A stretch of 64,000 nt of DNA, from NCBI GenBank assembly GCA_963555995.3, contig OY821641.1, positions 2,560,001 through 2,624,000 on the forward strand, given 5' to 3'. How positions within the stretch are numbered: position 1 is the first letter of the stretch; the number at the start of each line of letters is the position of its first letter. The notes below the pieces were generated by a model. It was not told where the DNA came from. It ran no database searches and was given only the letters and a program-made list of their open reading frames with translations. Below, one piece after another: positions 8,709-48,663 of this stretch. Source of the DNA: Vicinamibacteria bacterium. GTDB lineage: Bacteria; Acidobacteriota; Vicinamibacteria; Marinacidobacterales; Marinacidobacteraceae. A program made the translations under genes and the position numbers.

Positions 8709-8762
8709 CAGTTCTGATGGCCCAACGTCACGCCAACGAGAGGTCGCCCGGCCACGCTGTCC

Positions 8763-25194: not shown

Positions 25195-25198
25195 CGCG

Positions 25199-28859: not shown

Positions 28860-28899
28860 ATCGCGATGTTACGGGTTCGGTCCGGCGCATACCCCGAGG

Positions 28900-29517: not shown

Positions 29518-29537
29518 GCCGTTGGCCTCACGACTGG

Positions 29538-29566
29538 ATATTCGTCCATTTCGCCTATTCTGTCAA
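29538..29566 (-). promoter_or_regulatory. Putative sigma70 promoter of the Xre antitoxin
   Basis: Minus strand TTGACA-17 nt-GAATAT, about 20 nt before the ATG. Confidence 0.4.
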
Positions 29567-29676
29567 CATGGTGTTTGGACCCGTGTTGTTTTTCCGCGTA
29601 AATCGGATCCCGGAGGGAACGACTTACCAGAAAGACGAGCGGTCCCGCTTTTGCCGCACGGCGTCACGCCGCGACG

Positions 29677-30804: not shown

Positions 30805-30884
30805 GCCGGTCAGCGCGCCCCGGCGGTTCGGGGAGTGGACGGGGAGCCGGGCATGTGCTTTCGGAGGAACCGAGGCGCGGTCGT

Positions 30885-31416
30885 CAACCTGTGTGATTCA
30901 GGCCGCCTGCGAGTCCGAGCCTGTGTGATTCAAACCGCCTGCCGGGTCAAGCCTATGTGATTCAGCCTGTCTCACGCCCCGAGCCTATGTGATTCAGCAC
31001 GTTTCGCGCCCCGAGCCTATGTGATTCAGACCGTCTCACACCCCGAGCCTATGTGATTCGGCCCGTCTCGCGCCCCGAGCCTATGTGATTCAGCACATCT
31101 CGCGCCCCGAGCCTATGTGATTCGGCCCGTCTCACGCCCCGAGCCTATGTGATTCGGCCCGCCTCGCGCCCCGAGCCTATGTGATTCAGCACATCTCGCG
31201 CTCCGAGCCTATGTGATTCAGCACGTCTCACGCCCCGAGCCTATGTGATTCGGCCCGTCTCACGCCCCGAGCCTATGTGATTCGGCCCGCCTCGCGCCCG
31301 AGCCTATGTGATTCGGCCCGTCTCACGCCCCGAGCCTATGTGATTCGGCCCGCCTCGCGCCCGAGCCTATGTGATTCGGCCCGTCTCACGCCCCGAGCCT
31401 ATGTGATTCAGCACGT
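30885..31416. repeat. 17-unit tandem array, 32-bp period, core CCGAGCCTATGTGATTC
   Basis: Core starts at 30887, 30919, 30951, 30983, 31015, 31047, 31079, 31111, 31143, 31175, 31207, 31239, 31271, 31302, 31334, 31365, 31397. Confidence 0.97.
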
Positions 31417-31426
31417 CGGCCCACGC

Positions 31427-31474
31427 TGTCAAGCGACAGATAAAACTGGGCCGCTGGCGACATCTAAAACTGGG
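31427..31474. mobile_element. IS21-family-like terminal end (continues at 32852, after the ISL3)
   Basis: TGTCAAGCGACAGATAAAACTGGGCCGCTGGCGACATCTAAAACTGGG|CCACC: TGT end plus repeated GCGACAnnTAAAACTGGGCC subterminal boxes, as in IS21 ends. No istA/istB recognised. Confidence 0.6.
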
Positions 31475-32851: not shown

Positions 32852-32995
32852 AAACTGGGCCACCCCCGAGGGTTGGACGGCATCATGATGGTGTCTGGGG
32901 CGTGGGGGTTGATCCGGGGTTCGGGGGACAAGCGGCTCTCCGAACTGGTGTTCATGGTGGAGCAATAGCCGGGTAGCGGCTCTCCGCTCCCTCCC

Positions 32996-33427
32996 TCAAT
33001 CGCGCTCCTGATCCCGGAACCGGTCGAGGAACGCGGCGGGGCTGAGAATCGGTATCCCGCGGAACGGGGACATATCCAGCAGGTCCAGATCGCCCGTTAC
33101 CAGGCAGTTTGCGTCCCCCATCAGCGCCGTCTCAAGCATCTTGTCGTCATCGGGGTCGCGACACCCCAGCTTGGCCCCGGCTATCGAGACGAATTCCGAG
33201 ACTGCCCGCAGTTGGGCCAGGTAGACCAGCCGGTGTTCCCGAGCTGCATACCGGTCGAACTTCGACCGAAGCAGGCGAGTCCGAAGCTCCTCGAAGGTCT
33301 CCTCGGAGAACAGCAGCACGCCGTTTTCCGCCCGGAGCACGTCCACGACCGCCCGCGGCGGGCTCTCTCGTCGAAGCGCAGCGCTGATCAGTACATTCGT
33401 GTCCAGAACAAGCCGCTCAGCTTTCAT
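32996..33427 (-). CDS. PIN-family toxin (PIN_3 type)
   Basis: LVLDTNVLISA...E...CRDPDDDKMLETA...LVTGDLDLL. Confidence 0.92.
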   Translation of the reverse strand: MKAERLVLDTNVLISAALRRESPPRAVVDVLRAENGVLLFSEETFEELRTRLLRSKFDRYAAREHRLVYLAQLRAVSEFVSIAGAKLGCRDPDDDKMLETALMGDANCLVTGDLDLLDMSPFRGIPILSPAAFLDRFRDQERD

Positions 33428-33668
33428 CGGCCAACAGCGCGTTCAGCTCGGACTCGGTCAATCCGCGGGCGGCTGCTTCCTGACCCAGAGCGTCCATCGT
33501 CTGCGTCAGCCGTTCCCAGGCGGCGCCGCGAAGACGCTCATATTGCTGGACCGACATCACGACGCTGACGGGCCTCTCCTTCTTCGTGACGAGTACCGGG
33601 GCGCTCTGGGAGGCGTCAAGCAGACGTCCGAAGCTGTTCTTGGCCTCTCGGGCGGCGATCCTTCTCAT
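33417..33668 (-). CDS. Phd/YefM antitoxin
   Basis: IAAREAKNSFGRLLDASQSAPVLVTKKERPVSVVMS; overlaps the toxin. Confidence 0.92.
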   Translation of the reverse strand: MRRIAAREAKNSFGRLLDASQSAPVLVTKKERPVSVVMSVQQYERLRGAAWERLTQTMDALGQEAAARGLTESELNALLADES

Positions 33669-33674
33669 TAAGCC

Positions 33675-33694
33675 ATTATAGCTATTAGAGCTAT
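33675..33694 (-). promoter_or_regulatory. -10 box and palindromic operator of the Phd-PIN operon
   Basis: Minus strand ATAGCTctaatAGCTATAAT-ggctta-ATG: an inverted repeat overlaps a perfect TATAAT 6 nt before the ATG (probably leaderless). Confidence 0.6.
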
Positions 33695-33744
33695 GTCATT
33701 CGTGATCCTCCCCTCCCTACCGCCACCGTGTTAGCCTCGATTCC

Positions 33745-34647
33745 GTGGAACGGGAATCGGGCGGCGCGGCCACGGAGACCCCGGTCGGCCCGGACGGGAA
33801 CTGGACGGAGCCGGCGCGCAGGGAGCGCAACCGGGACGCCATCCGCCGCTTCTTCGAGACCGGGGAGTACCCCTACCGGCGGAAGCTCGCCCGCCGACCG
33901 TACGAACGGCAAAAAGCCGCGCTGCAGGTCGAGCTGCTCAAGGTGCAGGACTGGGTGAAGGCGACGAACGAGAAGATCGTCGTCCTCTTCGAGGGCCGGG
34001 ACGCCGCCGGCAAGGGCGGGACCATCAAGCGGTTCACCGAGCATCTCAACCCGCGCGGCGCCCGGGTGGTCGCGCTGGAAAAGCCGACCGACGGCGAACA
34101 GACCGAGTGGTTCTTCCAGCGCTACATCCACCACCTGCCGCGGGGCGGCGAAATCGTGCTGTTCGACCGTTCCTGGTACAACCGCGCCGGCGTCGAGCGG
34201 GTCATGGGGTTCTGCGGCGGCAGGGACTACCTGGAGTTCATGCGGCAGGCACCCGAGCTGGAGCGGATGCTCGTGCGCAGCGGGATCCGACTCATCAAGT
34301 ACTGGTTCTCGGTGACCCAGGAGGAGCAGCGCCGCCGCTTCGAAGCCCGCGAGCAGGACGTGCTGAAGCGGTGGAAGATGTCGCCGATCGACCGCCAGTC
34401 CCTCAACAAGTGGGACGAGTACACGGCGGCCAAGGAGGCGATGTTCTTCTACACGGACACCGCCGACGCCCCCTGGACGATCGTCAAGTCGGACTGCAAG
34501 AAGCGCGCGCGGCTGAACTGCATGCGGCACTTCCTGGCCGCGCTGCCCTACACGAACAAGGACGAGCGCGTCGTAGGGCGTCCGGATCCGCTCATCGTCG
34601 CCAGCGCCGACCTCAGCGGCGCGGGCGAAGCGGTGCCCGGCGCCTGA
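33745..34647 (+). CDS. ppk2: Polyphosphate kinase 2
   Basis: FEGRDAAGKGGTIKR, FDRSWYNRAGVERVMGFC, KRWKMSPID, DCKKRARLN. Confidence 0.96.
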   Translation: MERESGGAATETPVGPDGNWTEPARRERNRDAIRRFFETGEYPYRRKLARRPYERQKAALQVELLKVQDWVKATNEKIVVLFEGRDAAGKGGTIKRFTEHLNPRGARVVALEKPTDGEQTEWFFQRYIHHLPRGGEIVLFDRSWYNRAGVERVMGFCGGRDYLEFMRQAPELERMLVRSGIRLIKYWFSVTQEEQRRRFEAREQDVLKRWKMSPIDRQSLNKWDEYTAAKEAMFFYTDTADAPWTIVKSDCKKRARLNCMRHFLAALPYTNKDERVVGRPDPLIVASADLSGAGEAVPGA

Positions 34648-34735
34648 CGCGGGCGGCGTGCGGGTGCCTCGCGTCGTCCGCGTCGAACAGCGCGACGAGC
34701 GCCGACGAATCCACGAAGACCGGGAGCGGCGCCAT
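34613..34735 (-). pseudogene. Truncated PIN/VapC toxin (N-terminus only)
   Basis: MAPLPVFVDSSALVALFDADDARHPHAA is TGATG-coupled to the antitoxin and then runs into the ppk2 3' end. Confidence 0.7.
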
Positions 34736-35172
34736 CAGCCGCCCTCCTCCACCGCGCGGGCGAACTCCTCGTCGTGGTTCTCCGCGAGCCCGCCGCCGCC
34801 CGAGCGGTAGCGACCGATCACCGACTTCATGGCTTCGCAGTCTTCGTCGAGCCGCCGCCGGTCGGTGTCGGCATCCAGCAGTTCGCGCAGCAGCACTTCC
34901 GGAGCCACGCCGCGTTCTCCGGCCGCCTGGCGGAGCCGCTCCATGACGCCCTTCGGAGCCGTCCCGGCGACCGCCGCACCGTAGGCCGCCCGCGGTTCGG
35001 CGACCCGATCGGCGGCGGCCTCCGGCGGAGCGTCCGCCGCCCCGGACGCCGGCACGAGCCGCGCCACCGGTCGGCCCCACTTGGTGATGACCACGGGCGT
35101 CCCGGTGGCCGCGACCTCGTCCATCGTCTTCAGGCAGATGTCCTTGAACTTGCCGGCGGGAAGAGTGCGCAT
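34735..35172 (-). CDS. Phd/YefM antitoxin fused to a second RHH/VapB-like segment
   Basis: MRTLPAGKFKDICLKTMDEVAATGTPVVITKWGRPVARLVP, then ERLRQAAGERGVAPEVLLRELLD...IGRYRSG..GLAENHDE. Confidence 0.8.
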   Translation of the reverse strand: MRTLPAGKFKDICLKTMDEVAATGTPVVITKWGRPVARLVPASGAADAPPEAAADRVAEPRAAYGAAVAGTAPKGVMERLRQAAGERGVAPEVLLRELLDADTDRRRLDEDCEAMKSVIGRYRSGGGGLAENHDEEFARAVEEGG

Positions 35173-35362
35173 CCGCCGATTGTAGCCATGGCCATATCTC
35201 GGCTCGCGGACCGCCAGCGCGAGACGACCGGACGCTTCCCGGCCATCTCCCGAACCCCGTACCCCCGATGGCTTTCGTGTGAGGGTAGATCGTTGAATAG
35301 CGGTCAGCCTCCCTGCAGCGCGGCGGCTAGACTTGCGTTCCGCGGAGCGAGAGACCAGCCAG

Positions 35363-35674
35363 ATGACTGAAGCGCGACTGAACGACGTTCGGGAGATCGT
35401 GGCGCAGGTGCTCGCCGAGATCTTCGGCGACACGGTGCGATTCGGACGGATCCACATGGGTTCCCTCGTGGATCACGACGGGTTCGAGTACGTGACCGCC
35501 CGCGTCATCTACGAGTCCCCGGACGAATCGCTCGATGCCAGGAAGATGGTGAGCGTCCATGGCCCCCTGAATGATCGGGTGCTGGCAATCGGGGTGGACG
35601 CCATTCCGGTCGTGTCGTACATCGCCAAGTCGGAAGAACGGGAATGGCTCGGTGATCGCGCGCAATCTGATTGA
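35363..35674 (+). CDS. Small hypothetical protein (possible degenerate MNT-like partner of the HEPN)
   Basis: 103 aa with a DHDG motif; overlaps the HEPN-like gene. Confidence 0.6.
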   Translation: MTEARLNDVREIVAQVLAEIFGDTVRFGRIHMGSLVDHDGFEYVTARVIYESPDESLDARKMVSVHGPLNDRVLAIGVDAIPVVSYIAKSEEREWLGDRAQSD

Positions 35675-36116
35675 GACCGCCCGTTCCCTGATCCCGGCCG
35701 GTCGGGGGCGGCCCCGGGAGACGGACCTTCGCCGCGCCGCGAGTACGACCTACTACGCCGCGTTCCACCGCCTCATGCAGTGCTGCGCCGACCGACTGGT
35801 CGGAACCGGTCTCGCTCGGCAAACTCCCGCCTGGAACCGCGTGTACCGAGCGTTGAACCACGCTCAGTGCGCACGGGTCCGCAGGCGGGAAGCGAGGGGT
35901 CTTTCGATCCCGGTTCGAGCGCTGACAGACCTGCTTCCGGACCTGATGGGTCGCCGACACGCCGCCGACTACGACCCCGGTGCCGACTTCACGAAGTCGG
36001 AGGTCCTCGGAGACATTGGCGCGACCGAAGCTGCGTTGGACGCGTTCGACAGATCATCGGCCAACGATCAGCGCGAGCTCGCCGTCTTCCTGCTGTTCCG
36101 CGAGCGGCCCGACTGA
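35652..36116 (+). CDS. HEPN-like protein
   Basis: DLRRAASTTYYAAFH and RHAADYDP, typical of HEPN subfamilies. Confidence 0.75.
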   Translation: MIARNLIETARSLIPAGRGRPRETDLRRAASTTYYAAFHRLMQCCADRLVGTGLARQTPAWNRVYRALNHAQCARVRRREARGLSIPVRALTDLLPDLMGRRHAADYDPGADFTKSEVLGDIGATEAALDAFDRSSANDQRELAVFLLFRERPD

Positions 36117-36174
36117 TCTCACGGCGACTGCCGTTCCCCATCACGGCCGGACCGCGGGAATGCCCGGCTTTCGG

Positions 36175-36391
36175 CCACCTCGCTGCCGGGCGGCTCCGGC
36201 GCATCCTGTTCCGGCTCCAGGAGGCGACCGACCCACGCAGCGCTGATGCGCCCGAGTTTCGGCTGCATCCGCTGAATGGCGACCGCGCGGGCGAGTGGAG
36301 TGTTCGCGTCTCCGGCAACTGGCGGGTCGTGTTCCGTTTCGAGGACAAAGAGGTCGTGGACGTGAACCTGATTGACTATCACTGTCGGTAG
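36175..36391 (+). pseudogene. HigB/RelE-type toxin, 5'-truncated
   Basis: RLRRILFRLQEA...FRLHPLNGDRAGEWSVRVSGNWRVVFRFEDKEVVDVNLIDYH; the usual N-terminus and start codon are missing. Confidence 0.75.
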
Positions 36392-36413
36392 AGGAGTGCC
36401 GACAAGGAACGAC

Positions 36414-36704
36414 ATGACGAACGACCGCGTCGGCCCGATGCGGAACCCGCCGCATCTCGGCGAACTGATCCGGGAGAGCATGGACGAACTGGGTTGGACC
36501 GTGACCCGGACGGCGGAGCAACTCGGCTGCGAGCGGGGCACGCTGTCACGCCTGCTGAACGGCAAGGCGGGGCTGTCGGCCGCCATGGCGCTGGCGCTGG
36601 AGGACGTCGGCTGGGGCACCGCCGACCACTGGATGCGGATGCAGGCGAGCTACGAACTCGCGCAGGCGCGCCGGGACCGGGCGTCCGCGGCGGCTACGGC
36701 CTGA
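36414..36704 (+). CDS. higA: HigA-family antitoxin
   Basis: MRNPPHLGELIRE...LSRLLNGKAGLSAAMALAL...WMRMQASYEL. Confidence 0.92.
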   Translation: MTNDRVGPMRNPPHLGELIRESMDELGWTVTRTAEQLGCERGTLSRLLNGKAGLSAAMALALEDVGWGTADHWMRMQASYELAQARRDRASAAATA

Positions 36705-36722
36705 CCGAACCGGCCGCGCGAC

Positions 36723-37058
36723 TCACCGATGGCTCGGCGCGCCCTGTCCGGCCGCGTCCGAATCGAGCGCCACTTCCGGGCGCAACTTCAGGCCCAGAGC
36801 GTCGAGGACCCGGAGAACGGTGTCGAGCGTGGGATTGCGCTCCCCCGAAAGCGCCTTGTAGAGGCTTTCGCGGGACAGGCCGGCGTCGGACGCGACCTGC
36901 GACATCCCCCGGGCGCGGGCCATATCGCCGAGCGCCTTGGCGATGAACGCGGCATCGCCGGCCGCCTCCTCCATGCAGGCTTCCAGACAGGCGGCCATTT
37001 CCTCCGGCGTGCGGAGGTGCTCGGCCACGTCGTAAGGCGTAGTAGCGGTCGTGGTCAT
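36723..37058 (-). CDS. Addiction module antidote protein (HTH), orphan
   Basis: YDVAEHLRTPEEM...IAKALGDMARARGMSQVASDAGLSRESLYKALSGERNP; no killer gene upstream. Confidence 0.9.
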   Translation of the reverse strand: MTTTATTPYDVAEHLRTPEEMAACLEACMEEAAGDAAFIAKALGDMARARGMSQVASDAGLSRESLYKALSGERNPTLDTVLRVLDALGLKLRPEVALDSDAAGQGAPSHR

Positions 37059-37132
37059 GGTTCCCACCTACAGGTTTGCCGTGTGAACGCAGTCCCGCGG
37101 GTCCGCCAGGCGCCGTGATGGCGCCACCGGCT

Positions 37133-37294
37133 GGGAACGCCGGTCTCCAGACCGGCACAGCGGGCCGAAGGCCCGCGGACGTCGTACCGCTGTCTGCCGT
37201 GATGGACCAGGAGTCGAACCCATTCGTGCGGGGCAGCGTCGTGCCGTGCGCTGCGCTGTCGCGCAGCGCGTGCCGGTCTGAAGATCGGCGCTCC
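37133..37294. repeat. REPIN-like element, copy 2
   Basis: GGGAACGCCGGTCTCCAGACCGGCAC...GTGCCGGTCTGAAGATCGGCGCTCC; reverse-complement homologue of 59194-59356. Confidence 0.82.
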
Positions 37295-37472
37295 AGACAA
37301 CCATTTTCATGACCGACGAGGTGTGCAGGAGGACCGATCATGAGGATTTCGGGGAAGGCGTAGGGCCGTCGTCCAGCGATCCGCGTAGACGTCGGACTTC
37401 CGGATCGCAACGGACGGAACGTAGCCAGAAGGCTACAGCCTGTCGAAGAGCGTCGTCTGCCGGCGTTCATCA

Positions 37473-38636
37473 CTACGCGGCCCAGTCACGCACCCACCCC
37501 ATCATCTCCTCCAGCGGAATCCCCAGGATCTCCGCCCCGCGACCCAGGGAAATGCGACCATCTTCCAGAGCCCTTCTCACCAGTCGGGAAAGGCAATCTG
37601 GCCTGAAGTCGTGCTCCGACAGCGCCACCGGCTCGCTGGCGCGACTCCAGTTCCACGCGAACTCACTCTCCTGGAGCGCTTCCGGCTCATCCCGCTTTCC
37701 CGGAGTCCTTCCGAAGCGACTCCGGTGCTGCGTCTGGAATCTGCCCCAGACATCGCGACTCTCGCGGTCCGTCGTGACGAGCCGGTAGAGCACGGTCCTG
37801 TAGCTGACCCGGAACGTCCGCTTCACTGCGAGAACGCGCACCAGCAGCGGGTACCCGCGAGTGGCCTCCCACTCGACGGCGAAGGCCTCCTCCGGCATCA
37901 GGAACTCGCTGGCAAAGGCGTCCGCATCGGCCTCGGCCTTCCGTGGAAGGTCGGTTTGTTCGCTCCGGAATTCCCCCGGATGGAGAAGCAGATGCCCCAG
38001 TTCGTGGGCAGCCGTGAAGATCCAGCGCTCCACCGAGATCCGGTCCCAGACGTTGACCACCACCGCCGGACCACCGTCCTCCGGCCCCACGCTCAGCCCG
38101 AAGAACGAGTCACGCTTCTTGTCCAGCAAGAGGACCTTGACGCCGCTGTCTTCGAGCAACCGGCAGATGTTGGCGACCGGCGCCCGGGACCCGAGCCCCG
38201 CCGCCCGTCGCACGGCTCTCGCGACCTCCGCGGGAGGCCTGACGCCGTTTGACGCGACCAGTTCCTGAAACCGGAACGGCTGCGTTTCGTTCAGTTCCGC
38301 CTCCAGCCAGACGTAGGCGTCCAGCCTCGCCGAGACTTCCGCGAGCGTCTGCTCTCGCCCGTACATCGTCGAGTGAGCGCGGAAGCGGGCACTCCGAAGC
38401 GGCCGCACGGGGATGACCAGATCCCGGACCGGAACCCCAAGGGCCCGCGCCAGCCCGGCGAGCGTCCCCGCGCGGGGCACAACAACGCCACGCTCGATCT
38501 TCCCGATGGCGACCCGGGACACCCCAACCTGCTCGGCGAGCGCGGCCTGGGTCAGCCGCCGGTCCAGCCGCAGCCGGGCGACGTTCGCAGCGATCGCGGT
38601 CTCTTGAGACATGGCCCCTCGCTTGACAAGCTCCAT
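37473..38636 (-). CDS. XRE-HTH + ImmA/IrrE (M78) metallopeptidase fusion
   Basis: LTQAALAEQVGVSRVAIGKIERG; ERWIFTAAHELGHLLLH (HExxH); EADADAFASEFLMP. Confidence 0.92.
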   Translation of the reverse strand: MELVKRGAMSQETAIAANVARLRLDRRLTQAALAEQVGVSRVAIGKIERGVVVPRAGTLAGLARALGVPVRDLVIPVRPLRSARFRAHSTMYGREQTLAEVSARLDAYVWLEAELNETQPFRFQELVASNGVRPPAEVARAVRRAAGLGSRAPVANICRLLEDSGVKVLLLDKKRDSFFGLSVGPEDGGPAVVVNVWDRISVERWIFTAAHELGHLLLHPGEFRSEQTDLPRKAEADADAFASEFLMPEEAFAVEWEATRGYPLLVRVLAVKRTFRVSYRTVLYRLVTTDRESRDVWGRFQTQHRSRFGRTPGKRDEPEALQESEFAWNWSRASEPVALSEHDFRPDCLSRLVRRALEDGRISLGRGAEILGIPLEEMMGWVRDWAA

Positions 38637-38658
38637 AGTTATCTTATCTACATAGCCT

Positions 38659-39810
38659 GTGAAAACGATGCTCCATAGAGAGACTCAGAACGCCGACTAC
38701 ACTCGGGACCAGAGAGATCCCGCCGTGCCGTATCCCCAACCGACCTTCCCTCGCGCCGAGGTGGACGCCGCCGGGAGAGTCCTCACGGAGACCCCGACCG
38801 CGGACGCAACCGCGGGCGCGGCGCGACAGCGGGCAAGGGAGCTGGTGGACGACTGGCGGGCTTCCCACGCCCATCCGCTGGTCACGTTCCGCGTTCTTCT
38901 GGAGGAGCGCGCCCGCCGCATCGCCCCGGAGGCGCTGGTGGCGCAGCGGCTGAAGCGCCTCGCCTCTGTGGAAGCGAAGCTCCGCCGGTTCCCCTGGATG
39001 AAGGTCTCGCGGATGCAGGACCTCGGCGGCTGCCGGGCCATCCTCCCGTCCGTGCGGGAGGTGCGGGAACTCGTCGAGACCTGCCGACAGGGCCGCGAGG
39101 AACACGAGTTCGTCAAGGAATCCGACTACCTCGAGCAGCCGAAGCGCAACGGCTATCGCAGCGTCCATCGCGTCTATCGCTACCGCTCCCGGGCGGGCCG
39201 GAACGCGGCCTGGAACGGGCATCGGATCGAGATCCAGATCCGGTCCCGCCTGCAGCACGCCTGGGCGACTGCGGTGGAGACGGTGGACGCCCTGACCGGC
39301 ACCCGACTGAAGACGAGCGGCCCCGCGAACGGCCTCTGGGACCGCTTCTTCGCGCTCATGGGGAGCGTCTTCGCCATTGAAGAAGGGTGCCCGCCAGTGC
39401 CAGAGACTCCCGCAACGCGGTCCGAACTGCGGGATGAGGTCCGGGACCTCGTTCGGGCGCTTGACGTGGAGGGCGCGCTCTTCGGTCTGGGGAGCACCAT
39501 CCAGAATGTTCGACTGCCCGCCGACGCCGCGTGGTTCCTGATGAGCCTGGACGCCGCCGGCCGGAAGGTGTTCATCCGCAGCTACGGCCAGCGGCAGTTT
39601 TCCACCGCCCAGGCCGAGTACCTCAGGCTCGAAGCAGAGTACGAAGGCAGGCCCGGGTTCCAGGCGTGCCTCCTGTCCACGGACTCGGCGAAAGCCCTTC
39701 GGCAGGCGTATCCCAACTACTTCCTCGATGTCAGCGCGTTCTCCGAGTCGCTGAACCGGTTTCTCGACGGCCCGGACGATCGGGCCTCCGAGTACCAGCG
39801 TGCTTCCTGA
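38659..39810 (+). CDS. RelA/SpoT small alarmone synthetase, fused CapRel-like
   Basis: QRLKRLASVEAKL, MQDLGGCR, GYRSVH, IEIQIRSRLQHAWA; C-terminal domain ends LRQAYPNYFLD (YxxY). Confidence 0.85.
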   Translation: MKTMLHRETQNADYTRDQRDPAVPYPQPTFPRAEVDAAGRVLTETPTADATAGAARQRARELVDDWRASHAHPLVTFRVLLEERARRIAPEALVAQRLKRLASVEAKLRRFPWMKVSRMQDLGGCRAILPSVREVRELVETCRQGREEHEFVKESDYLEQPKRNGYRSVHRVYRYRSRAGRNAAWNGHRIEIQIRSRLQHAWATAVETVDALTGTRLKTSGPANGLWDRFFALMGSVFAIEEGCPPVPETPATRSELRDEVRDLVRALDVEGALFGLGSTIQNVRLPADAAWFLMSLDAAGRKVFIRSYGQRQFSTAQAEYLRLEAEYEGRPGFQACLLSTDSAKALRQAYPNYFLDVSAFSESLNRFLDGPDDRASEYQRAS

Positions 39811-39896
39811 CCCCATCTGAAGGCGCAACGCTGCTATCGAGAGCCGCTTCGAGTACAACACCACGGACCAGAACCTCCCGCCCCCCTGCTGACCCG

Positions 39897-41102
39897 ATGT
39901 TCGACACGAAAGACCAGATCCTCGACCAACTCCGCGCCGGGGAGGACAGCCGCGCCGAGTTCAAAGAAGTGCGCTTCGGGGGCCGCGGGGTGATCTCTCC
40001 CAATACCGAAGATCTGGCCGGCGAACTGGTGGCGTTCGCAAACGCCGGTGGCGGCGCGCTCTTCCTCGGTGTGGACGATTCGGGAAAAGTGCTCGGCATC
40101 CCGTCGGACCGAGTCGGCGCCACGGAACGCTGGCTGGTCAACGTGGCGACGAACAACTGTGATCCCCCGATTCGGCCGGACGTGCGCAAGGTCTGTCTTG
40201 CCGTCCCTAACGGAGATGAGCAGCCGATTCTGGTCATTCGCGTTCCCCGGGGCACCTTCGTCCACCAGACCTCGGGAGGCCGGTACTACGCACGGGTCGG
40301 CTCGACAAAACAGCGGCTCACCTCGCCGGAACTCGCGCGGCTCTTCCAGGATCGCGGCCGCGGTTACGTCTTCGACGAACAGCCGGTGTTCGCCGCCGAC
40401 GTGAACGAGCTCGACTGGGACCGCCTCGAAACATTCTTTGGTCGCTCGCCGAACATTCCGTGGCTCGACCTGCTACGCAACACCCGCGTCGTGCTGCGCG
40501 ACGAGGAGGACGCCGACCGGCCTTCGGTGGCCGGTCTGTTGACCTTCGGCAAACAGCCGACCGAGCACCTGCGGAGCGCCTGGATCGAAGCCGCCTGCTA
40601 CCGGGGAACCCGGCTTTCATCCGACGATCTGATCCACGAGGAGCGCCTCCGCGGCCCGGCCCCCGACCAGATGGACGCCGCGGTCGCCTTCGTCATGCGC
40701 TTCGGCGCCGCCGGTGACGACCCGGCCCGCCGACCGCCCTATGACATCGAGGTGGTGGACGAGGCCATCGTCAACGCCGTCGCCCACCGCGACTATTCCA
40801 TCTACGGCGCAAAGATCCGCCTCTTCCTGTTCGCCGACCGCCTGGAGCTCTACAGCCCGGGTAAGCTGCCCAACACGATGACGCTGGAGGAAATGCCCTA
40901 CCGCGTCTTCACCCGTAACCAACACCTCGTGAACTTCCTCTCCCGCATCCACAGCAAGCGCACGGGCCGGGTCTTCCTCGAATCGCGCGGCGAAGGCGTC
41001 CGTAGGATCCTTGAAGGCGGCGAAGCCCACTCCGGCCGCCGCCCCAAGTACGAACTCTTCGGCGAGGAACTCCGCCTTACCCTCTGGACCAAAGCACGGT
41101 GA
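39897..41102 (+). CDS. Schlafen/AlbA_2 domain + HATPase_c_4 protein
   Basis: GEDSRAEFKE, LVAFANAGGGALFLGVDD, YYARVGST, EAIVNAVAHRDY, SPGKLP, ESRGEGV. Confidence 0.9.
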   Translation: MFDTKDQILDQLRAGEDSRAEFKEVRFGGRGVISPNTEDLAGELVAFANAGGGALFLGVDDSGKVLGIPSDRVGATERWLVNVATNNCDPPIRPDVRKVCLAVPNGDEQPILVIRVPRGTFVHQTSGGRYYARVGSTKQRLTSPELARLFQDRGRGYVFDEQPVFAADVNELDWDRLETFFGRSPNIPWLDLLRNTRVVLRDEEDADRPSVAGLLTFGKQPTEHLRSAWIEAACYRGTRLSSDDLIHEERLRGPAPDQMDAAVAFVMRFGAAGDDPARRPPYDIEVVDEAIVNAVAHRDYSIYGAKIRLFLFADRLELYSPGKLPNTMTLEEMPYRVFTRNQHLVNFLSRIHSKRTGRVFLESRGEGVRRILEGGEAHSGRRPKYELFGEELRLTLWTKAR

Positions 41103-41271
41103 ACGCAGGTTGCGGACCGAAAGGGTACCGTCTGTCGCATTGTGGATCACGAGACAATTCAGAGGACAGTGTTCCACCCAACGCTACCGTAGGGCCGGAT
41201 AGGCGGTAGTAACCGGACGGTATCGCTTCGAAGTCGTGCAGGTGTGCGTCACCGAGACTCAAACGGGATAG

Positions 41272-43479
41272 ATGGGCTGGGGCGGAATGCATCGCGACGG
41301 GAAGGAAAACCGATTGCACTGCATGTGGCGTCGCGTCACGGAGATACTGGGGTCCCCTTGGCGCTGGTGGCGGAACCGAAAAGGACGCGCAGCGGGCCAG
41401 ATGCCGGCGGTGCTCGGCGATGGTTTGGGCGGAGCGAATTGGGACCGGCATCCAGTACCAACAAGCTCGGAGACTGCACCGCCCACAGCGGAACCAACCG
41501 AGGCAGAACCAAGTAACACGGCGCAGGAGAACGACACCGACCCACTACCGACTCCCGATAAGGATCGCGCCGGGGGCGAACCAATCTCGCACGGAATTGC
41601 TGAGAGGGAGCGCGACAGCGAAGCGTCGCGACGACCGCGGTCGCGCGGGGGCGAACGCGGGCGGGAGCATCGGGGCAAGGATCCTGCTGACGGGGAGACT
41701 GTGTGGCATCCGTCGGCAACAAAGGAGGGACAGGTAGAGATCGTGTGCCGTGAGCACGAAGGGCGGTGGGAGCTAGCGGTCGTGCCGCGTCGCGGCGTGG
41801 TGGTGCGCGGCACCGATGGGCAGCTGGCGTCAGCGAACGGCGAATTCGTTCCGGCATCCTTTCGCAGCGAGGTCTATATCGAGAACGTCGCAGGAGGAGA
41901 GCGCCGACTCCTGCCGCTGTATACGGACAAACCAATGGTCTTCCAAGTCGGCACGGACTGGCGGGGTCCGGGCCGCAAAGTGCGCGGAGTCGGTGTCGGC
42001 CACTTCGTGGCGATCGTGCCCATGGAGTGGACCCGTTGGGGAAGCGCGCCGGTGAAGCCGGAACCATGTGCGGATGCGGGTTTCTGCGCGCACTACTTCC
42101 ACGGGGCTCGAGGGGACGCACCGAAGGCCGAAGGGTTCGAAGAATTCGGCGCCGTGTCGACCTCGGTCATCGAACTTGTCGGTCGGCGGGTCTTCGACGA
42201 CTCGGATCAGGGCGAGCTGTACGTGGGGCATGTACCGGAGCTAAACGCGCCAGGCATGGCGTGGGCACATGTGGGCGAGGAGGGTCGAAAAGGCTGGCGC
42301 GAAACCTATCGCCTGGACAGCGGACAAACGCTCGCCGATGTCGTCGGGGATCGCCAAGGGTGGTTCTTTGTACGCGTGTACCGCGAGGGCGAAATAGTGC
42401 AGGCGGACAGCGTCCAGTTCCGATACCTCGCGAGTCTGCGGGAGATCCGCATCGACGGGAGGCCGTACACGGCCGACACGCTCTTGACTCCGGGGCCGCG
42501 AGGCCACGGAACGTCGCGGATCGATTTCGTCGGATCAACCAAAGCCCGCGTCCGCATCGAGGGAACGGTGACGAGCGGACTGAGTGTGGCGCCCGGTGGC
42601 ACGTCGGTCGCGTGTGCCCCGCACCCAGAGCTGGGGGAGTTGCAGTTTCGGTTGACCGATGGCCACGGAGCGGTGGATGTTGTGATCGACCTGCCGCGGG
42701 TGTGGTGGCGGCTGGAGCGCGCGGGACAGGCGCTGGCCTCCTGGAGGGACCGATCCGATACCGTGACTAGGAACGAGTACCGAGCGCTGGCGCTCGACGG
42801 GTTTGCGGTAACGGTAAGGGTGCCGGCACGGGCCGCCCCGGTCGGGTTCGGCTTCGACGAGGAAGGTCGAGTGGGGTACCCGGGCAGGCGGGAGGGACGG
42901 CGCGCGTTGTGCGTCGTGTCGCTCCGGGATTTCGCGGACCACGAGGAGATCGACCGGCGGTTGTTCCGGGATGCCGTCTTTGGCGCGCGCTGCGGGGAGG
43001 CCATAGTGGACCTCATGAAGGTGGCCGCCGACCCGTTACCCAAGATCGCTGAATTCACAGTCGCGCCTGCTCGCGCGCGGGTGGGGGAGACGGTGGCCGT
43101 ACTCTGGAGGATCGAGAACTGCGAAGGCGTCGAAGTCTCACTGGAGCCGGACGTCGGTCCGGTGGCTGCCGAGGGCCGGTACAAAATCCGAATGGACCGA
43201 CGGACGCGGGTGGCCCTGCGGCTCGTCGCACCCGGGATGAACGACCTCGTGCGCGAGTTCTTCGTCGACTTGGAGCCACCCGCGGCGTCCTTGGAGCAAC
43301 AGCCCATAGCGCGCGCAAGGCGAGCCGGGAGCTGGCGTCGCGCGAAGGGATTCAGCCCCGGGGAGATGGCGGAGGCCGCGGGCTCAGTGCGACTATCGGT
43401 AAGGCGCGACCGGCGCCGCAGAAGCGCGCACGCGATCAACATCGCGTCACTTGAGGACTGGATGAATGCACAACGCTGA
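41272..43479 (+). CDS. Large hypothetical protein, beta-rich, with C-terminal Ig/PKD-like and L13e-like segments
   Basis: 735-aa ORF overlapping the helicase start by 14 nt; exact start uncertain. Confidence 0.75.
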   Translation: MGWGGMHRDGKENRLHCMWRRVTEILGSPWRWWRNRKGRAAGQMPAVLGDGLGGANWDRHPVPTSSETAPPTAEPTEAEPSNTAQENDTDPLPTPDKDRAGGEPISHGIAERERDSEASRRPRSRGGERGREHRGKDPADGETVWHPSATKEGQVEIVCREHEGRWELAVVPRRGVVVRGTDGQLASANGEFVPASFRSEVYIENVAGGERRLLPLYTDKPMVFQVGTDWRGPGRKVRGVGVGHFVAIVPMEWTRWGSAPVKPEPCADAGFCAHYFHGARGDAPKAEGFEEFGAVSTSVIELVGRRVFDDSDQGELYVGHVPELNAPGMAWAHVGEEGRKGWRETYRLDSGQTLADVVGDRQGWFFVRVYREGEIVQADSVQFRYLASLREIRIDGRPYTADTLLTPGPRGHGTSRIDFVGSTKARVRIEGTVTSGLSVAPGGTSVACAPHPELGELQFRLTDGHGAVDVVIDLPRVWWRLERAGQALASWRDRSDTVTRNEYRALALDGFAVTVRVPARAAPVGFGFDEEGRVGYPGRREGRRALCVVSLRDFADHEEIDRRLFRDAVFGARCGEAIVDLMKVAADPLPKIAEFTVAPARARVGETVAVLWRIENCEGVEVSLEPDVGPVAAEGRYKIRMDRRTRVALRLVAPGMNDLVREFFVDLEPPAASLEQQPIARARRAGSWRRAKGFSPGEMAEAAGSVRLSVRRDRRRRSAHAINIASLEDWMNAQR

Positions 43480-46400
43480 AGAGCTGAGCGGCTGGACGGA
43501 GACCATCCGACAGCGTTATCGGAACTATTTGCGGACATCGTTCTTCTTCAAGGAACCCGCGCTGCGAACCTCGTTCGCAGTGGCGCTAGAGCAGGAGGCG
43601 GAGCTGCTGAAGGGACCGTTTCCGGAACCGGGACGGTTGTTCGCCCGTGGCGTGAGCGCGCCGGAGCTCGCGCAGGAATACCTCGGTAGTGAGTGCGACG
43701 GGTTGCGTCCGGCACTGCTTGACAATCCCTTGTACACGCACCAAGAGCGGGCTGTACGAATGACCTTCGGCGAAGCGCGCAACGTTGTGGTGGCCACCGG
43801 GACGGCGAGTGGCAAAACGGAGAGCTTCCTGTATCCGATCCTGTTCGAGTTGTACCGGCAGCATCTGGCCGGGCAGCTTGCGGTGCCGGGTGTTCGCGCC
43901 TTGGTGCTCTATCCGATGAACGCGCTCGCGAACGATCAACGGGAGCGTCTGCGGAAAATCTGCCGCACGCTAGAACACCACGGTTCGGATTTCATACCGA
44001 CGTTTGGGCAGTACATCGGCGAGACCCCCTACATTGCGCCGGCCGACGTGGCCGAGGAGGCTGCCCGTGGTGAACTGCTAGGCCGTGAGCAGATGCGGCA
44101 GACACCGCCACACATCCTCTTGACGAACTACTCGATGCTGGAATACCTGCTGATGCGGCCGGACGATAGTCCGCTGTTCGAGAACAGCAGCCAGTGGCAG
44201 TTCATGGTGCTTGACGAGGCTCACCAGTACCGGGGCGCGAAAGGCATGGAGATGGGGATGCTGCTGCGGCGCCTCAAACAACGCCTGCGCGACGGCGGGC
44301 GGGCGGACGCGTTCCGCTGCATCGCAACGAGTGCCACGATGAGTTCGGGGGAGGGCGGCAAAGAGCGCCAAGCGGTCGCGGACTTCGCGACGGCTCTGTT
44401 CGGCGAACCGTTCGAAATGGACGGCGTAATCTTCGGGGAACTGGACGCAACAGATCGCCCCATGGCCACTGCGGGGCGCTACCACGCGTTTCTGCGGGCC
44501 TTGGAGGGCGCCTTCTTGGTCCATCGTGGTGGCAGGGACGTAGTGGTTTTGAACCGCAGCGGTGGGGAGGCACCAGCGGGGCCTCCCGTGCCGCTCGAGA
44601 TCGCGCTCTGCAGGGAATGTGGGCAGCACTACTATGTGGGTCGCGAGCGCGGCGGGCGGCTCGCGGAAGGAATTCGGGATCCCAGCCACGAGTCGTTCGG
44701 CGTCGAGTACTTCCTGCCGACGGACTACGCGGCCACACACTGGCTCTGTCGCCGCTGCGGGGCGCTGTCCGGCGGCGGGCCTACGTGCGATTGCGACGCA
44801 GGCACGGGGGTGAAGCACTGCGAGGCACATCCGGACCGGCCGGACCAGTTGCGCGAATGCGCTGTGTGCGGCTACCAGCGGGGTAGTCTGGGCGATCCCG
44901 TCCAAGAGATCGTGCACGGGTCAGACGGGCCGAACGCAGTGATCGCCACGGCGCTCCACGAAGTGCTGCCAGCAGAGCGCCGCAAGGTGTTGGCGTTCGC
45001 GGACAGCCGGCAGGAAGCCGCGTTCTTCGCCTGGTACGCGGAGGACTCATACAAGAAGCTCCGCGATCGCAACCTCATGCTTCGGGCGCTCCGCTCGAGT
45101 CCCATCGATGTCGAAGGGTTGTCGGTGGACGACCTGGCGACACGGTTGGCACGGCAATGGGACGCAGCCGGTCTCCTGAAGGAATCCGACACTCAGGAGA
45201 CACGCAAGCGCGCGGTCCTTGGGTCGATCTTTGCAGAGGCGCTCACCGAAGAGCGGCGCCTTTCATTGGCGGGCGTAGGGCTCGTGAAATGGACGGTGAG
45301 AATCCCAGCAGATGTCTTATTGCCCGCTATCGTGCATGCGACGCCGTGGCGCTTGAGCGATTTCGAGGCGCGGGAACTGATCGGCTTCCTGCTGGAACAG
45401 ATGCGCACGCGGCGTGCTCTCGCGCTGCCGGAGGGACCGGGAGCGCCGGACTGGGCCGATGTGACGCCGTGGGCGACCCAGGCGTTCGCACCCGGCCCAC
45501 CCGGACGCCGAAAGGGCGTGGTGCAATGGGGCGGACCGCAATCGGCCGTCGTCACGCACTATCTCGCCAGGCTGCTCGGTGCCGAGGTTTTCGAGGAGCA
45601 GCGCCCGCAAACGTCTCAGGCGCTGATGCGGGCGCTGTGGCAGGCACTCCGGGACCGGGATCGCGCCCACCGTTCGGACGAACAGCTGTTGTGGGGTGGC
45701 CAGGGCAGGTGGAACGGGACGTTCCGGATTAGCCCACACTGGCTGCGGGTCCAGCTGGCCGACGCAGCCGACATCTGGGAATGTGACACGTGCGCAGGGC
45801 TGAGCGCACACCGCGTGCGCGGCATCTGTCCCCGCAACGGATGCCCCGGAACGCTTGGCTCGGTAGACGAGGGGCGATTAGGTCAGAACCACTATCGGAT
45901 TCTCTACGAGAGCGACGAACTTCCCGCCGAATTGGTGGCGGAAGAGCACACCGCGCAGATCGAAAGCGGTGAGGCGCGGCGCCGTCAACGGGATTTCAAG
46001 GATGGATCGACACACTTGCTCAGCTCGTCGACGACGTTTGAGGTAGGTGTCGACCTCGGCGATCTGGACGTGGTATTCCTGCGAAACGTCCCGCCCGAGC
46101 CATTCAACTACACACAACGCGTGGGGCGTGCCGGGCGCCGGGACAGGCCCGGGCTCGCGCTGACGTACTGCCGGCGGAACCCGCACGACCTGTACCACTA
46201 CGGCGACCCCGAGGAGCGGGTGATCAGGGGCAAAGTGGAGCCACCCAGGCTCCGGATGACGAATGAGAGGATCATCGTACGGCACATGGTTGCCGCGTCG
46301 CTTGCGGCCTTTTTCAAGGCTGACGACAACCGCGGCCGGTTCAAGAATGTGGAGGCGTTCGTGGGGGACTGGTCGGCACCTCGGAGCGTGTCGGACGTAA

Positions 46401-47677
46401 GGAGCTTTTGCACCGGCAACGCGGCGCTTGGGAAGGCGCTGCGTCGCATCGTTCCTGATGAGATGCACGACGCGGTCGGTCTGTCCTCGGACGGCTGGGT
46501 GAGGCGCGTCTGCGGGCCCGCGAGCCGCTTCGCGCAAGTTGAAGCGGAGGTAGTTTCTGACTACCAACGCATGGAAGACTTGCGACTGGCGCTATTCCAG
46601 AAGCGGGAGAGCACGGGTCGGGTCGAGGCTCGGATCAGGACGGTACGCCGTGAATCGACCCTGACTTTCCTGTCGCGCAAGGCGGTGATCCCGAAATACG
46701 GCTTTCCGGTGGATGTCGTAGAACTGGACACGCACTCGGAGGACGGGCGCGTGGCCCTGCAACGGGATCTGTCGCAGGCGATCGCGGAGTACGCACCAGG
46801 GGGGCGCGTTGTTGCGAACAAGCGCGAGTGGTCGTCGTACGGGCTGAAGATGGTAGCTGGGAAGGCGTGGCCCGTGCGGTCCTACGCGTACGACGACGCA
46901 CGGAGTTTCCGGCAGTGGCACGAGGGCGATCCGTCAGCGCCGCCTGATGCCCGCCGATATGTGATCCCGGAATGGGGGTTCGTGACCCAGTGGTCGAAAC
47001 AACCGCCACGGCCGCAGGGCCGCGCGCGGCGCTTCTACACTACCCGGCCGTTCTTCCGGGGCTTCGGCCGCGTGGATCGGCCGACCACGCGCGTCGTTCG
47101 CGGCGTGGAGGTGACGCAGGCGCAACCCGGGACGCTCGTGATTCTCTGCGAAGGGAGGAACCGGTCGGGTTTCTACATCTGCGGCATGTGCGGCGCGCAT
47201 GCCACGGCGCGAAAGAGGGCACATCGGACACCTGCGAACATCGCTTGCCAAGGTTCGATGGGCTGGTTCTCGCTCGGCCATGAACTCGTAACCGACGTGG
47301 TGCGCCTGAAGTTTCCGGGAGTCGGAGACGAGTGGCACGCATACTCGGTCGGGTATGCCGTGCTCCTGGGCGCCGCGGAGACGCTCGGCGTGCCCAACAC
47401 GGACTTGAACGTGACGATTGCAAGGGCTGAAGATCCAGGCACGTCCGCCATCGTGCTCTACGACGCGGTGCCGGGTGGGGCCGGACTGGTCGCGCAACTC
47501 GAGCGTGACGACGTGTTTTCACGCGTGCTGGTGCTCGCCCGTCAGCGCGTGGACGGCGACTGTGGTTGCGATTCAAGCTGTTACGGTTGCCTACGCAGCT
47601 ACCGGAATCAGTTCGCGCATCCGTACCTCCACCGGATGCGCGCGGCGGAGACGCTGGACGCGCTAAGAGGGCCGTGA
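43466..47677 (+). CDS. DEAD/DEAH helicase with Zn-finger inserts and C-terminal DUF1998 (DruE/MrfA-like)
   Basis: ATGTASGKT, YPMNALANDQ, TNYSMLE, DEAHQY, ATSAT, FADSRQ, STTFEVGVD, QRVGRAGRR, YDAVPGGAG, CGCDSSCYGCL. Confidence 0.93.
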   Translation: MHNAEELSGWTETIRQRYRNYLRTSFFFKEPALRTSFAVALEQEAELLKGPFPEPGRLFARGVSAPELAQEYLGSECDGLRPALLDNPLYTHQERAVRMTFGEARNVVVATGTASGKTESFLYPILFELYRQHLAGQLAVPGVRALVLYPMNALANDQRERLRKICRTLEHHGSDFIPTFGQYIGETPYIAPADVAEEAARGELLGREQMRQTPPHILLTNYSMLEYLLMRPDDSPLFENSSQWQFMVLDEAHQYRGAKGMEMGMLLRRLKQRLRDGGRADAFRCIATSATMSSGEGGKERQAVADFATALFGEPFEMDGVIFGELDATDRPMATAGRYHAFLRALEGAFLVHRGGRDVVVLNRSGGEAPAGPPVPLEIALCRECGQHYYVGRERGGRLAEGIRDPSHESFGVEYFLPTDYAATHWLCRRCGALSGGGPTCDCDAGTGVKHCEAHPDRPDQLRECAVCGYQRGSLGDPVQEIVHGSDGPNAVIATALHEVLPAERRKVLAFADSRQEAAFFAWYAEDSYKKLRDRNLMLRALRSSPIDVEGLSVDDLATRLARQWDAAGLLKESDTQETRKRAVLGSIFAEALTEERRLSLAGVGLVKWTVRIPADVLLPAIVHATPWRLSDFEARELIGFLLEQMRTRRALALPEGPGAPDWADVTPWATQAFAPGPPGRRKGVVQWGGPQSAVVTHYLARLLGAEVFEEQRPQTSQALMRALWQALRDRDRAHRSDEQLLWGGQGRWNGTFRISPHWLRVQLADAADIWECDTCAGLSAHRVRGICPRNGCPGTLGSVDEGRLGQNHYRILYESDELPAELVAEEHTAQIESGEARRRQRDFKDGSTHLLSSSTTFEVGVDLGDLDVVFLRNVPPEPFNYTQRVGRAGRRDRPGLALTYCRRNPHDLYHYGDPEERVIRGKVEPPRLRMTNERIIVRHMVAASLAAFFKADDNRGRFKNVEAFVGDWSAPRSVSDVRSFCTGNAALGKALRRIVPDEMHDAVGLSSDGWVRRVCGPASRFAQVEAEVVSDYQRMEDLRLALFQKRESTGRVEARIRTVRRESTLTFLSRKAVIPKYGFPVDVVELDTHSEDGRVALQRDLSQAIAEYAPGGRVVANKREWSSYGLKMVAGKAWPVRSYAYDDARSFRQWHEGDPSAPPDARRYVIPEWGFVTQWSKQPPRPQGRARRFYTTRPFFRGFGRVDRPTTRVVRGVEVTQAQPGTLVILCEGRNRSGFYICGMCGAHATARKRAHRTPANIACQGSMGWFSLGHELVTDVVRLKFPGVGDEWHAYSVGYAVLLGAAETLGVPNTDLNVTIARAEDPGTSAIVLYDAVPGGAGLVAQLERDDVFSRVLVLARQRVDGDCGCDSSCYGCLRSYRNQFAHPYLHRMRAAETLDALRGP

Positions 47678-47820
47678 GGTCTGCGGTGCGGCGACCGCCA
47701 AGAATGCCGAGGTCCGGCTCGAGGGCCGTCCGGACTCCAACGTTTTTCGGAGTGGGCGGACACGGGGTCATATGCCGCGTATCGGAGCGACCAGAGTCGT
47801 AACGGAGGTTGAGATCGGAC

Positions 47821-48663
47821 GTGAAGAAGCAACTTGGGTACAGCGAGTTCTCCTTCGGGTACGCCTTCACGGAGAACTTGGTGCGGTCGTCGGCGGCGGG
47901 TCCGCCGGCCGCACCGCGTTTTCCAAACCTGCAAGAGGAGGGACAGCTTGGCTATGACGTGCAGTTGACGGCGGGAGGAGTTCCGTTGTTCCTGCAGTTC
48001 AAGCTGCCGGAACGGATGGTGCGCACGACGGCGGCCGAGATTTCGAAGTACGGCCTCAATCGGAGTGGTCTGTCAACACCGTTCTTTCGGTTGTATCTGA
48101 TGAAGAGGAACGTGTCCCGGCAGCACGAGCTGCTGATCGAAATAGAACAGAAGGAGCCTGGAAGCGTCTTCTACGCAATGCCCCACCTGGTTGGACCGCG
48201 AGAATTCAGCACGGCCTACGCCGCTATGGCCGTGCATCGACACTCCGTGCTGTTTTCTCCCTGTGATATCGGTCCGTTGCGAGACGATGCGCAGCACACA
48301 GTTGCGTACGACCCGAGGTCGCGCGGCGCGTGGTTTTGTTCGGAGCCGAAACTCATTGAAGCCCACGATGTCGTGTCGGTGCTTGCGGAGAGGGGCCGGG
48401 CGGCGAGTGAGCAGGTGACAGGTGGTTTGGCAGCCGTGGCGCGAGCGATTTCCGGACGGATTCTGTCGACGAGACCCGGTGAGCTTGACGACGTAGCAGC
48501 TGCGGCGCGGGAACGGCGGCGGCGCATCGTCGCGGATTCGCGGCAGCGCGACGAGGCAGAGGAAGCCGTTGAGGAGCTGTTCATCGCACGAGAGTTAGCC
48601 CGCATCGGACTAGGTGTGGAGTTGCTGATCGCGCAGCCCCGCCCTGCGACGGCGACGAGGTGA
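47821..48663 (+). CDS. Hypothetical protein, putative PD-(D/E)XK-like nuclease
   Basis: SEFSFGYAFTE...EEGQLGYDVQL....PLFLQFK resembles an E...D...QxK restriction-fold motif; GTG start at 47821 (TTG at 47809 possible). Confidence 0.6.
   Translation: MKKQLGYSEFSFGYAFTENLVRSSAAGPPAAPRFPNLQEEGQLGYDVQLTAGGVPLFLQFKLPERMVRTTAAEISKYGLNRSGLSTPFFRLYLMKRNVSRQHELLIEIEQKEPGSVFYAMPHLVGPREFSTAYAAMAVHRHSVLFSPCDIGPLRDDAQHTVAYDPRSRGAWFCSEPKLIEAHDVVSVLAERGRAASEQVTGGLAAVARAISGRILSTRPGELDDVAAAARERRRRIVADSRQRDEAEEAVEELFIARELARIGLGVELLIAQPRPATATR

Follow-up and report, generated by a model that had tools for sequence, protein, structure and literature searches.

Why should a bacterial gene beside a helicase end in what looks like a piece of an archaeal or eukaryotic ribosome, and what would that piece do there? 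The question is raised by one locus in the window analyzed here, a 64,000-nucleotide stretch from a Vicinamibacteria bacterium (assembly GCA_963555995.3, contig OY821641.1, positions 2,560,001 to 2,624,000). An open reading frame (ORF) on its plus strand (41272-43479) encodes a protein of 735 amino acids (aa), termed here the partner of the helicase whose gene overlaps it. An earlier note on this DNA had proposed that the last 58 residues of the partner (43303-43476, with the stop codon at 43477-43479) form a domain like ribosomal protein eL13. Judged by profile searches and predicted structure, this tail is a genuine eL13 core. What the earlier note missed is that the slot at the C terminus is swappable, eL13 being one of its occupants, and that the helicase has its place in a published clade, Druantia III-B-like.

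Taken singly, the window tail scores weakly, owing to a 4-residue deletion in the GLTx turn that is found in the window tail and in 29 of 177 tails. PRK12277 (L13e) was the sole NCBIfam family matched, with E 3.7e-6 and 26.5 bits for the tail alone and E 1.8e-4 and 21.1 bits for the whole partner protein (residues 682-732), scores that lie far below the equivalog cut-off of 96. Pfam PF01294 did not detect the window copy in scans of either the tail or the whole protein, and single-sequence phmmer searches of the PDB gave nonsignificant E values of 0.61 and 0.74, both top matches being eL13. A homolog search yielded 39 proteins, the window's own among them, and PF01294 matched 8 of the 38 scanned, with 6 above the cut-off; partner ORFs from GTDB loci gave a match in 19 of 31, and 7 of the 31 reached the cut-off.

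Profiles built from several tails gave a stronger signal. With 16 tails, the first PDB match was an archaeal eL13 (9e6q_AH; E 2.8e-14), followed by eukaryotic eL13 apart from two repeat-driven IcmE rows. We discarded the IcmE/DotG and SinR matches, which involved only a short GFS-x2-EL repeat or a helix-turn-helix (HTH) helix, IcmE having no single significant stretch. A 25-tail profile matched 147 short proteins among 1901 candidates, and PF01294 was present in 118 of the 120 listed; among listed short eL13 proteins with a taxon name, 12 of 13 were from TACK archaea and 1 was labelled Paceibacterota. The tail spans nearly the whole of a 65-90-aa archaeal eL13, in the order beta-hairpin, G-F-S-x2-E helix, D-x-R-R-R-S-x-H-x2-N loop, and C-terminal helix, and it retains the core motif R-x-G-[RK]-G-F-S-x2-E ... 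D-x-R-R ... N with A for the first G. Its best identity to any stand-alone eL13 is 39%. Across the 177 bacterial tails, the invariant positions of eL13 (G, F, S, E, D, R, R, N) are conserved in 95-100% and the Arg preceding them in 91%. Fused tails and stand-alone eL13 carry the same net charge (+6.4 vs +6.6; +7 for the window tail), and column-by-column conservation correlates between the 177 fused tails and 118 stand-alone eL13 (rho 0.77 over 64 columns), a value inflated by the use of the tail profile to select the stand-alone proteins.

Structure prediction agreed with the profiles. The tail model, with a predicted local distance difference test score (pLDDT) of 85, matched 9 of 48,161 chains at Z >=2; eight were large-subunit ribosomal proteins, five of them named eL13 in PDB searches and three inferred as such, and the ninth reached Z 2.1. 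The top match was again eL13 9e6q_AH (Z 8.5; root-mean-square deviation, 1.8 Å over 60 residues), and the full-length partner model matched this eL13 too, with its residues 676-735. The homology that the earlier note had proposed was borne out by both profile and predicted fold.

The eL13 tail is under purifying selection in relatives of the partner. The ratio of nonsynonymous to synonymous substitution rates (dN/dS) was 0.14-0.43 over 53 codons outside the gene overlap (median of 0.27, vs 0.30 for the body) and below 1 in 15/15 pairs; of 378 DNA pairs, these 15 were similar enough for the measurement; they are not independent, and none includes the window. Conservation among homologues, on which the proposal of an eL13-like tail depended, was thus found in both the invariant sites and the selection regime, and a chance basic motif is excluded by the profile, fold, and selection tests. 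The host is bacterial, as the earlier note had assumed: the window's genome encodes bL19, holds one copy of the gene, and has no second eL13-like ORF at significance. A contig of another study runs without a gap across 42665-43934, from the Ig domain through the tail into the helicase start, and differs by 46 substitutions; together with bL19 in the genome, it excludes archaeal contamination or misassembly. Run X1 is possibly the window's own source and was left uncounted as independent support for the fusion.

Two studies describe eL13 as a non-ubiquitous archaeal protein that arose in the lineage ancestral to Cren-, Thaum-, and Korarchaeota (PMC3353972) and as archaea-specific among prokaryotes (10.1101/2021.01.31.429008). 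Identities of tails and cores co-vary (rho 0.49, n=115, 0/500 permutations), and the nearest tail is another fused tail for 107 of the 115; both observations fit one old capture of eL13. The 64-column tail tree is too weak to prove this, with bacterial and stand-alone rows intermixed (6 changes). A single capture of the eL13 core is likely, with a TACK archaeon as the candidate donor. No archaeon occurs among the 32 named GTDB loci, and of 20 clusters looked up, 19 had no archaeal name or were nameless and the rest was bacterial. Table S1 of PMC12458937 places III-B-like helicases in Korarchaeia (e.g., Kcr_0698), which offers a possible route for the capture.

The helicase has an intact Walker A motif (GTASGKT, 112), DEAH box (250), SAT, and motifs V and VI, carries CxxC zinc modules and DUF1998/MZB, and has no HKD/PLD motif. 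Its best PADLOC matches are DruE1 (E 8e-144) and DruE3 (E 2e-134). The helicase adjoining one relative, P0016, is labelled III-B-like in Table S1 of PMC12458937, and the P0016 partner is 52% identical to the window's and in the same deletion subclade; by this label the window helicase is indirectly placed in the III-B-like clade. In 29 of the 32 GTDB loci, from many bacterial phyla, a helicase directly follows the partner, and these helicases are full length and 54-74% identical to the window's. In the three exceptions, another gene follows (L002), the contig ends 423 nt later (L029), or the partner is broken (L031). An eL13 tail is present in 25 of the 32, and the helicase follows in 24 of these, so that the association with DUF1998 helicases foreseen by the earlier note stands, short of the "always" attached to it. 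The gene overlap is strict in eL13-tailed loci. A Shine-Dalgarno-like GAGGA inside the tail and the 14-nt overlap make it likely that partner and helicase are translationally coupled. The window thus appears to encode a two-gene Druantia III-B-like module, probably anti-phage. At L002 (11859 onward), an eL13-tailed partner overlaps, with the same ATG/TGA geometry, a different gene in place of the helicase, one that is DUF262-like by its motif.

The partner family is large, with 949 clusters at 50% identity matched by the core profile, 638 of them at E 1e-30; cluster-level tail counts rest on the best 150. The AlphaFold model of the window partner (pLDDT 76) consists of an N-terminal helix, disorder to residue 152, and tandem beta-sandwiches, and the true start of the gene may be Met18 at 41323. 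The helix has a hydrophobic moment of 0.72, as high as in 0/500 shuffles. Among 173 relatives, the best amphipathic stretch begins within the first 45 residues in 143, and 99 exceed all 20 shuffles. Because the helix is amphipathic, it is predicted to bind the membrane and to anchor the partner there. Cores are acidic (median net charge of -16), and eL13 tails are basic (median of +7). The PKD/Ig-like domain at residues 588-670 is absent from several relatives that retain the eL13 tail. The ESM Atlas yielded only a 0.77 lead for the core. The combination of a W/R/K amphipathic helix and an acidic disordered linker (41323-41721) is family-wide and recalls the N terminus of FtsY. Some members carry an N-terminal fusion, to sigma-70 in L024, L026, L030, P0142, and P0166 and to an SNF2 helicase in L029 and P0183. 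Sigma-70 regions 2-4 and a region 1.2 match occur at L024:7595-11668, L026:7430-11479, and L030:7253-11479, with a diverged eL13 tail still at the end. A distant member, L063, has a 1424-aa partner (5029-9303) with a long unannotated N-terminal part and a basic helical tail, before a 1549-aa helicase (383-5032, minus strand) that is 42% identical.

Within the best 150 clusters, 116 have an eL13 tail, and the other 34 include truncated sequences. Replacement tails identified by Pfam were uS17 (L007), uS5 (L027, L047-L051, P0090, and P0155), bS6 (P0147 and P0173), NusA-KH (P0309), and a MacB periplasmic domain (P0106), with a weak NusA-type HhH in P0105; uS5, uS17, NusA-KH, and bS6 are RNA binders. 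In a FastTree core tree of 157 rows without outgroup, from which truncated rows were dropped and in which eL13 rows were thinned at 62% identity, eL13 is scattered throughout, and the tail label changes 18 times, at least 13 of them forced by starred branches. A single origin of the uS5 tails was rejected (p-AU 2e-50 for a group named after the tree was seen), and by this tree uS5 was captured at least twice. Compared with the uS5 encoded by the window's genome, two uS5 tails share 85-86% identity and the others 33-55%, which suggests recent capture from the host lineage followed by fast divergence. We take eL13 to be the majority and probably the ancestral occupant of the slot. Since it is one occupant among several, the function of the tail is probably not specific to eL13.

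Other tails add to the diversity of the slot. Near-intact uS5 tails lie at L047:907-3723 (minus strand) and L048:214-3411 (plus strand), and L049-L051 form a gradient of decay. The P0129 tail (residues 500-632; also P0118 and P0127) resembles a stand-alone 105-146-aa Chloroflexota protein (Atlas score, 0.93), possibly another captured host gene. At L013:11942-12139, the eL13 tail is interrupted in its middle by a short piece that resembles a motif of the partner's own core (FDDS..G.LFVG). Guesses of HARE-HTH and bS6 for some unannotated tails were unconfirmed, bS6 reaching only E 0.017 for P0050.

The module lies in a defence/mobile island, in line with the defence-associated setting described by the earlier note. 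Its content includes an McrC-like nuclease, an ISL3 transposase, a PIN-Phd pair, HTH antitoxins, and an HTH-ImmA (RmrA-like) gene, and further a PDC-S33 RelA/SpoT protein, a Schlafen AlbA_2-ATPase, and a 284-aa ORF without a family. The McrC-like gene (DUF2357 and PDDEXK_7; 23590-27493, minus strand) is preceded by a 764-aa ORF without a Pfam match. The PDC-S33 RelA/SpoT-domain gene (38659-39810) and the Schlafen AlbA_2-ATPase gene (39900-41102) are directly upstream of the module in the same orientation and do not recur next to it across the 32 loci. The 284-aa ORF (47809-48663), downstream of the helicase, has a low GC content at third codon positions (GC3), possibly encodes a nuclease, was not found in related loci, and has no Pfam, PADLOC, or NCBIfam match. 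The module itself has a GC3 of 0.75-0.77, vs 0.90-0.94 for flanking genes, and is patchy, occurring in 8 of 61 kin genomes and 2 of 301 genomes in the phylum, the window's genome counted. Six copies exist in the host family, none with eL13: the five scanned have uS5 and the sixth is uS5-like. Because these copies carry uS5 and branch far from the window's copy, the latter was likely acquired by transfer. Relatives of the partner were not found in PLSDB plasmids, nor relatives of the core in viral contigs. Table 1 lists the features of the locus.

Table 1. Coordinates of the eL13-tailed module, its parts, and the surrounding island in the window
Feature	Position	Strand	Basis
Defence/mobile island around the module	23590..48663		Pfam, PADLOC
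Partner gene, 735 aa, without Pfam or PADLOC family	41272..43479	+	ORF list, family scans
N-terminal W/R-rich amphipathic helix, residues 18-35	41323..41376	+	AlphaFold, hydrophobic moment
Acidic linker, predicted disordered, pLDDT <50 for residues 33-152	41377..41721	+	AlphaFold
Conserved all-beta core, ~residues 155-587, tandem beta-sandwich/Ig-like domains	41734..43032	+	Predicted model, net charge across the family
Optional PKD/Ig-like domain, residues 588-670	43033..43281	+	Model, relatives' loci
eL13 core domain, residues 678-735	43303..43479	+	NCBIfam, profile search, predicted fold, alignment
Shine-Dalgarno-like GAGGA (43453-43457), within last eL13 helix; 14-nt overlap with helicase start	43453..43479	+	Sequence
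YprA/DruE-type superfamily 2 (SF2) helicase, 1403 aa	43466..47677	+	Pfam, PADLOC, motif check

What might the tail do? The conserved arginines of eL13 touch ribosomal RNA (rRNA). We tentatively favor a reading in which the tail would be a basic nucleic-acid-binding module serving the helicase, because the arginines and charge are kept, replacements include RNA binders, and E. coli DruH has a C-terminal site for single-stranded DNA (ssDNA), formed by R1031, H1062, R1064, and K1067 of its 1119 residues (10.64898/2026.05.12.722862). Carried at the tip of an acidic scaffold that is probably attached to the membrane, the eL13 core would use its basic surface to grip single-stranded or structured nucleic acid and present it to the neighboring helicase during anti-phage defence. 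By analogy with III-A work, the partner would be a functional counterpart of DruH, and the helicase would load on fork or overhang DNA and unwind it in the 3'-5' direction, itself carrying no nuclease. As the slot tolerates unrelated folds, the need that it serves, a positive nucleic-acid surface on an acidic scaffold, is probably general, and ribosomal proteins happen to meet it well; 25 of 42 replacement-tail rows have a net charge of +4 or more.

Several observations pull the other way. Six of the 42 rows are net negative, and a basic grip is hard to credit to bS6, the MacB periplasmic domain (P0106), or the L032 tail. The strict retention of D-x-R-R and N over long distances fits a specific site for structured RNA better than plain electrostatics. 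PADLOC neighbors were found at only 7 of 18 loci (94 ORFs, E 1e-25), a modest count taken without a background control. The analogy with III-A is architectural only, because the partner has no sequence match to DruH. Moreover, four III-A papers disagree on the role of DruH, which is cast as a scaffold (10.64898/2026.05.13.724758), an ssDNA binder (10.64898/2026.05.12.722862), a proposed phage-protein sensor and nuclease (PMC13192584), or an exonuclease whose C-terminal helical domain docks on the DruE Stalk in P. aeruginosa (10.64898/2026.05.13.724313); in M. smegmatis, DruH is described as a binding partner (PMC13316683).

A tail that tethers the module to ribosomes or expressomes, or senses them, seems unlikely to us, although nearly all identified occupants come from gene expression (eL13, uS5, uS17, bS6, NusA-KH, the weak NusA-type HhH, and sigma-70 at the N terminus). 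Such a domain would bind rRNA, ribosomes, or transcription complexes and thereby place the helicase at expressed, perhaps phage, DNA near the membrane or report the translation state. The two recently captured uS5 tails and the conserved N-terminal amphipathic helix would suit this role, whereas the commonest occupant is not a bacterial ribosomal protein (10.1101/2021.01.31.429008). Captured uS5 copies also decay to 33-55% identity, and a ribosome would hardly accommodate a 70-kDa fusion. Integrated domains of plant nucleotide-binding leucine-rich repeat receptors (NLRs) suggest an analogy that we regard as quite unlikely to apply, in which the slot would hold bait copies of host proteins attacked by phage effectors, and binding or modification of the bait would activate the helicase. 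Recurrent independent capture of essential host domains (the forced label changes and the rejected single origin of uS5), divergence after uS5 capture, and the proposal of DruH as a phage-protein sensor (PMC13192584) point in this direction. Against this, phages would gain nothing obvious by targeting eL13, even though this majority and probably ancestral occupant stays under purifying selection in bacteria; viral contigs also yielded no relative of the core.

The tail might instead be a protein interface by which the partner attaches to the helicase and switches it, in the way that P. aeruginosa DruH docks its C-terminal helical domain on the DruE Stalk (10.64898/2026.05.13.724313); this would agree with the strict gene overlap in eL13-tailed loci and with the co-variation of tail and core distances. 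A specific interface would hardly allow unrelated folds to replace the tail while the helicase stays full length and 54-74% identical, and we consider docking highly improbable. We give equally little credit to a passenger origin, in which a recombination-prone 3' end picks up pieces of abundant genes and the tail is kept mainly for the helicase ribosome-binding site or for protein stability, or to a module serving DNA repair. Odd occupants (MacB and several unannotated or truncated tails), the position of the helicase Shine-Dalgarno sequence and start within the last codons, and the repair helicases among YprA relatives (PMC12458937, section 5) are in their favor; the dN/dS values over codons outside the overlap, the near-invariant core motif in 177 tails, and the patchy, island-borne distribution speak against them.

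Beyond the nucleic-acid grip that we favor, a broader scheme is possible, albeit doubtful: a widespread Druantia-like immune system whose slot repeatedly captures host gene-expression pieces (eL13 taken from an archaeal host, uS5 on two or more occasions, uS17, bS6, and NusA-KH, with sigma-70 at the other end) and, on a scaffold anchored to the membrane, uses them as integrated sensors or as tethers to the ribosome, capture being ongoing. If true, this plug-in slot system would be a bacterial counterpart of integrated-domain immune receptors. The interchangeable tails on one scaffold open the question of sensing by Druantia partners to domain swaps, and ribosomal proteins appear to have been recruited into probable immunity repeatedly and recently. 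Moreover, eL13 is regarded as a marker of archaea and eukaryotes; its core here endures under selection in bacteria from many phyla, apparently in a non-ribosomal job. Its presence in bacteria causes mis-annotation, as in a 759-aa Chloroflexota member automatically named "ribosomal protein L13e" in NCBI. The helicase clade is already published; the partner family, the eL13 tail, and the slot are undescribed in the literature searched, which excluded subscription journals and bioRxiv supplements. Neither PMC12458937 (sections 5-6 and Tables S1/S2) nor the accessible text of PMC12839542 describes the partner family or the eL13 fusion.

Compared with known systems, the window tail resembles the short, stand-alone eL13 of TACK archaea in motif, conservation pattern, charge, and predicted fold. 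It differs from most eL13 by its 4-residue deletion, and whereas eL13 is a stand-alone small protein, the window copy is joined to 670 aa of non-ribosomal protein within a bacterial defence island. As described in PMC12458937 and 10.64898/2026.05.13.724758, Druantia III-B-like systems combine a compact DruE without PLD with one partner, as in the window; the window helicase, at ~1400 aa, is shorter than the 1667-aa III-B helicase of M. smegmatis, and the window partner ends in a captured ribosomal domain and has no match to the PADLOC DruH model. This III-A-type model matched neither the window protein nor 32 family cores, and core and full-length family profiles did not match the DruH3-model protein of genome G130, leaving the partner without sequence support as a DruH homolog. 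The 1069-aa partner of a Clostridium plasmid helicase was likewise rejected as a relative, as it does not align (hhalign probability, 0.15%), and a fold search with the partner model returned generic Ig-like matches only, with no DruH entry among them. In predicted architecture, the window partner may nonetheless resemble DruH of Druantia III-A (E. coli and P. aeruginosa), an upstream partner built on tandem Ig/Fn3-like domains, and both families diverge more than their helicases. DruH has an N-terminal helical (YjiT/nuclease) region, in place of which the window partner has an amphipathic helix and a disordered linker. At the other end, the C-terminal part of DruH is implicated, in the III-A reports, in ssDNA binding or helicase contact, and in the window family the C-terminal domain is eL13 or another captured module.

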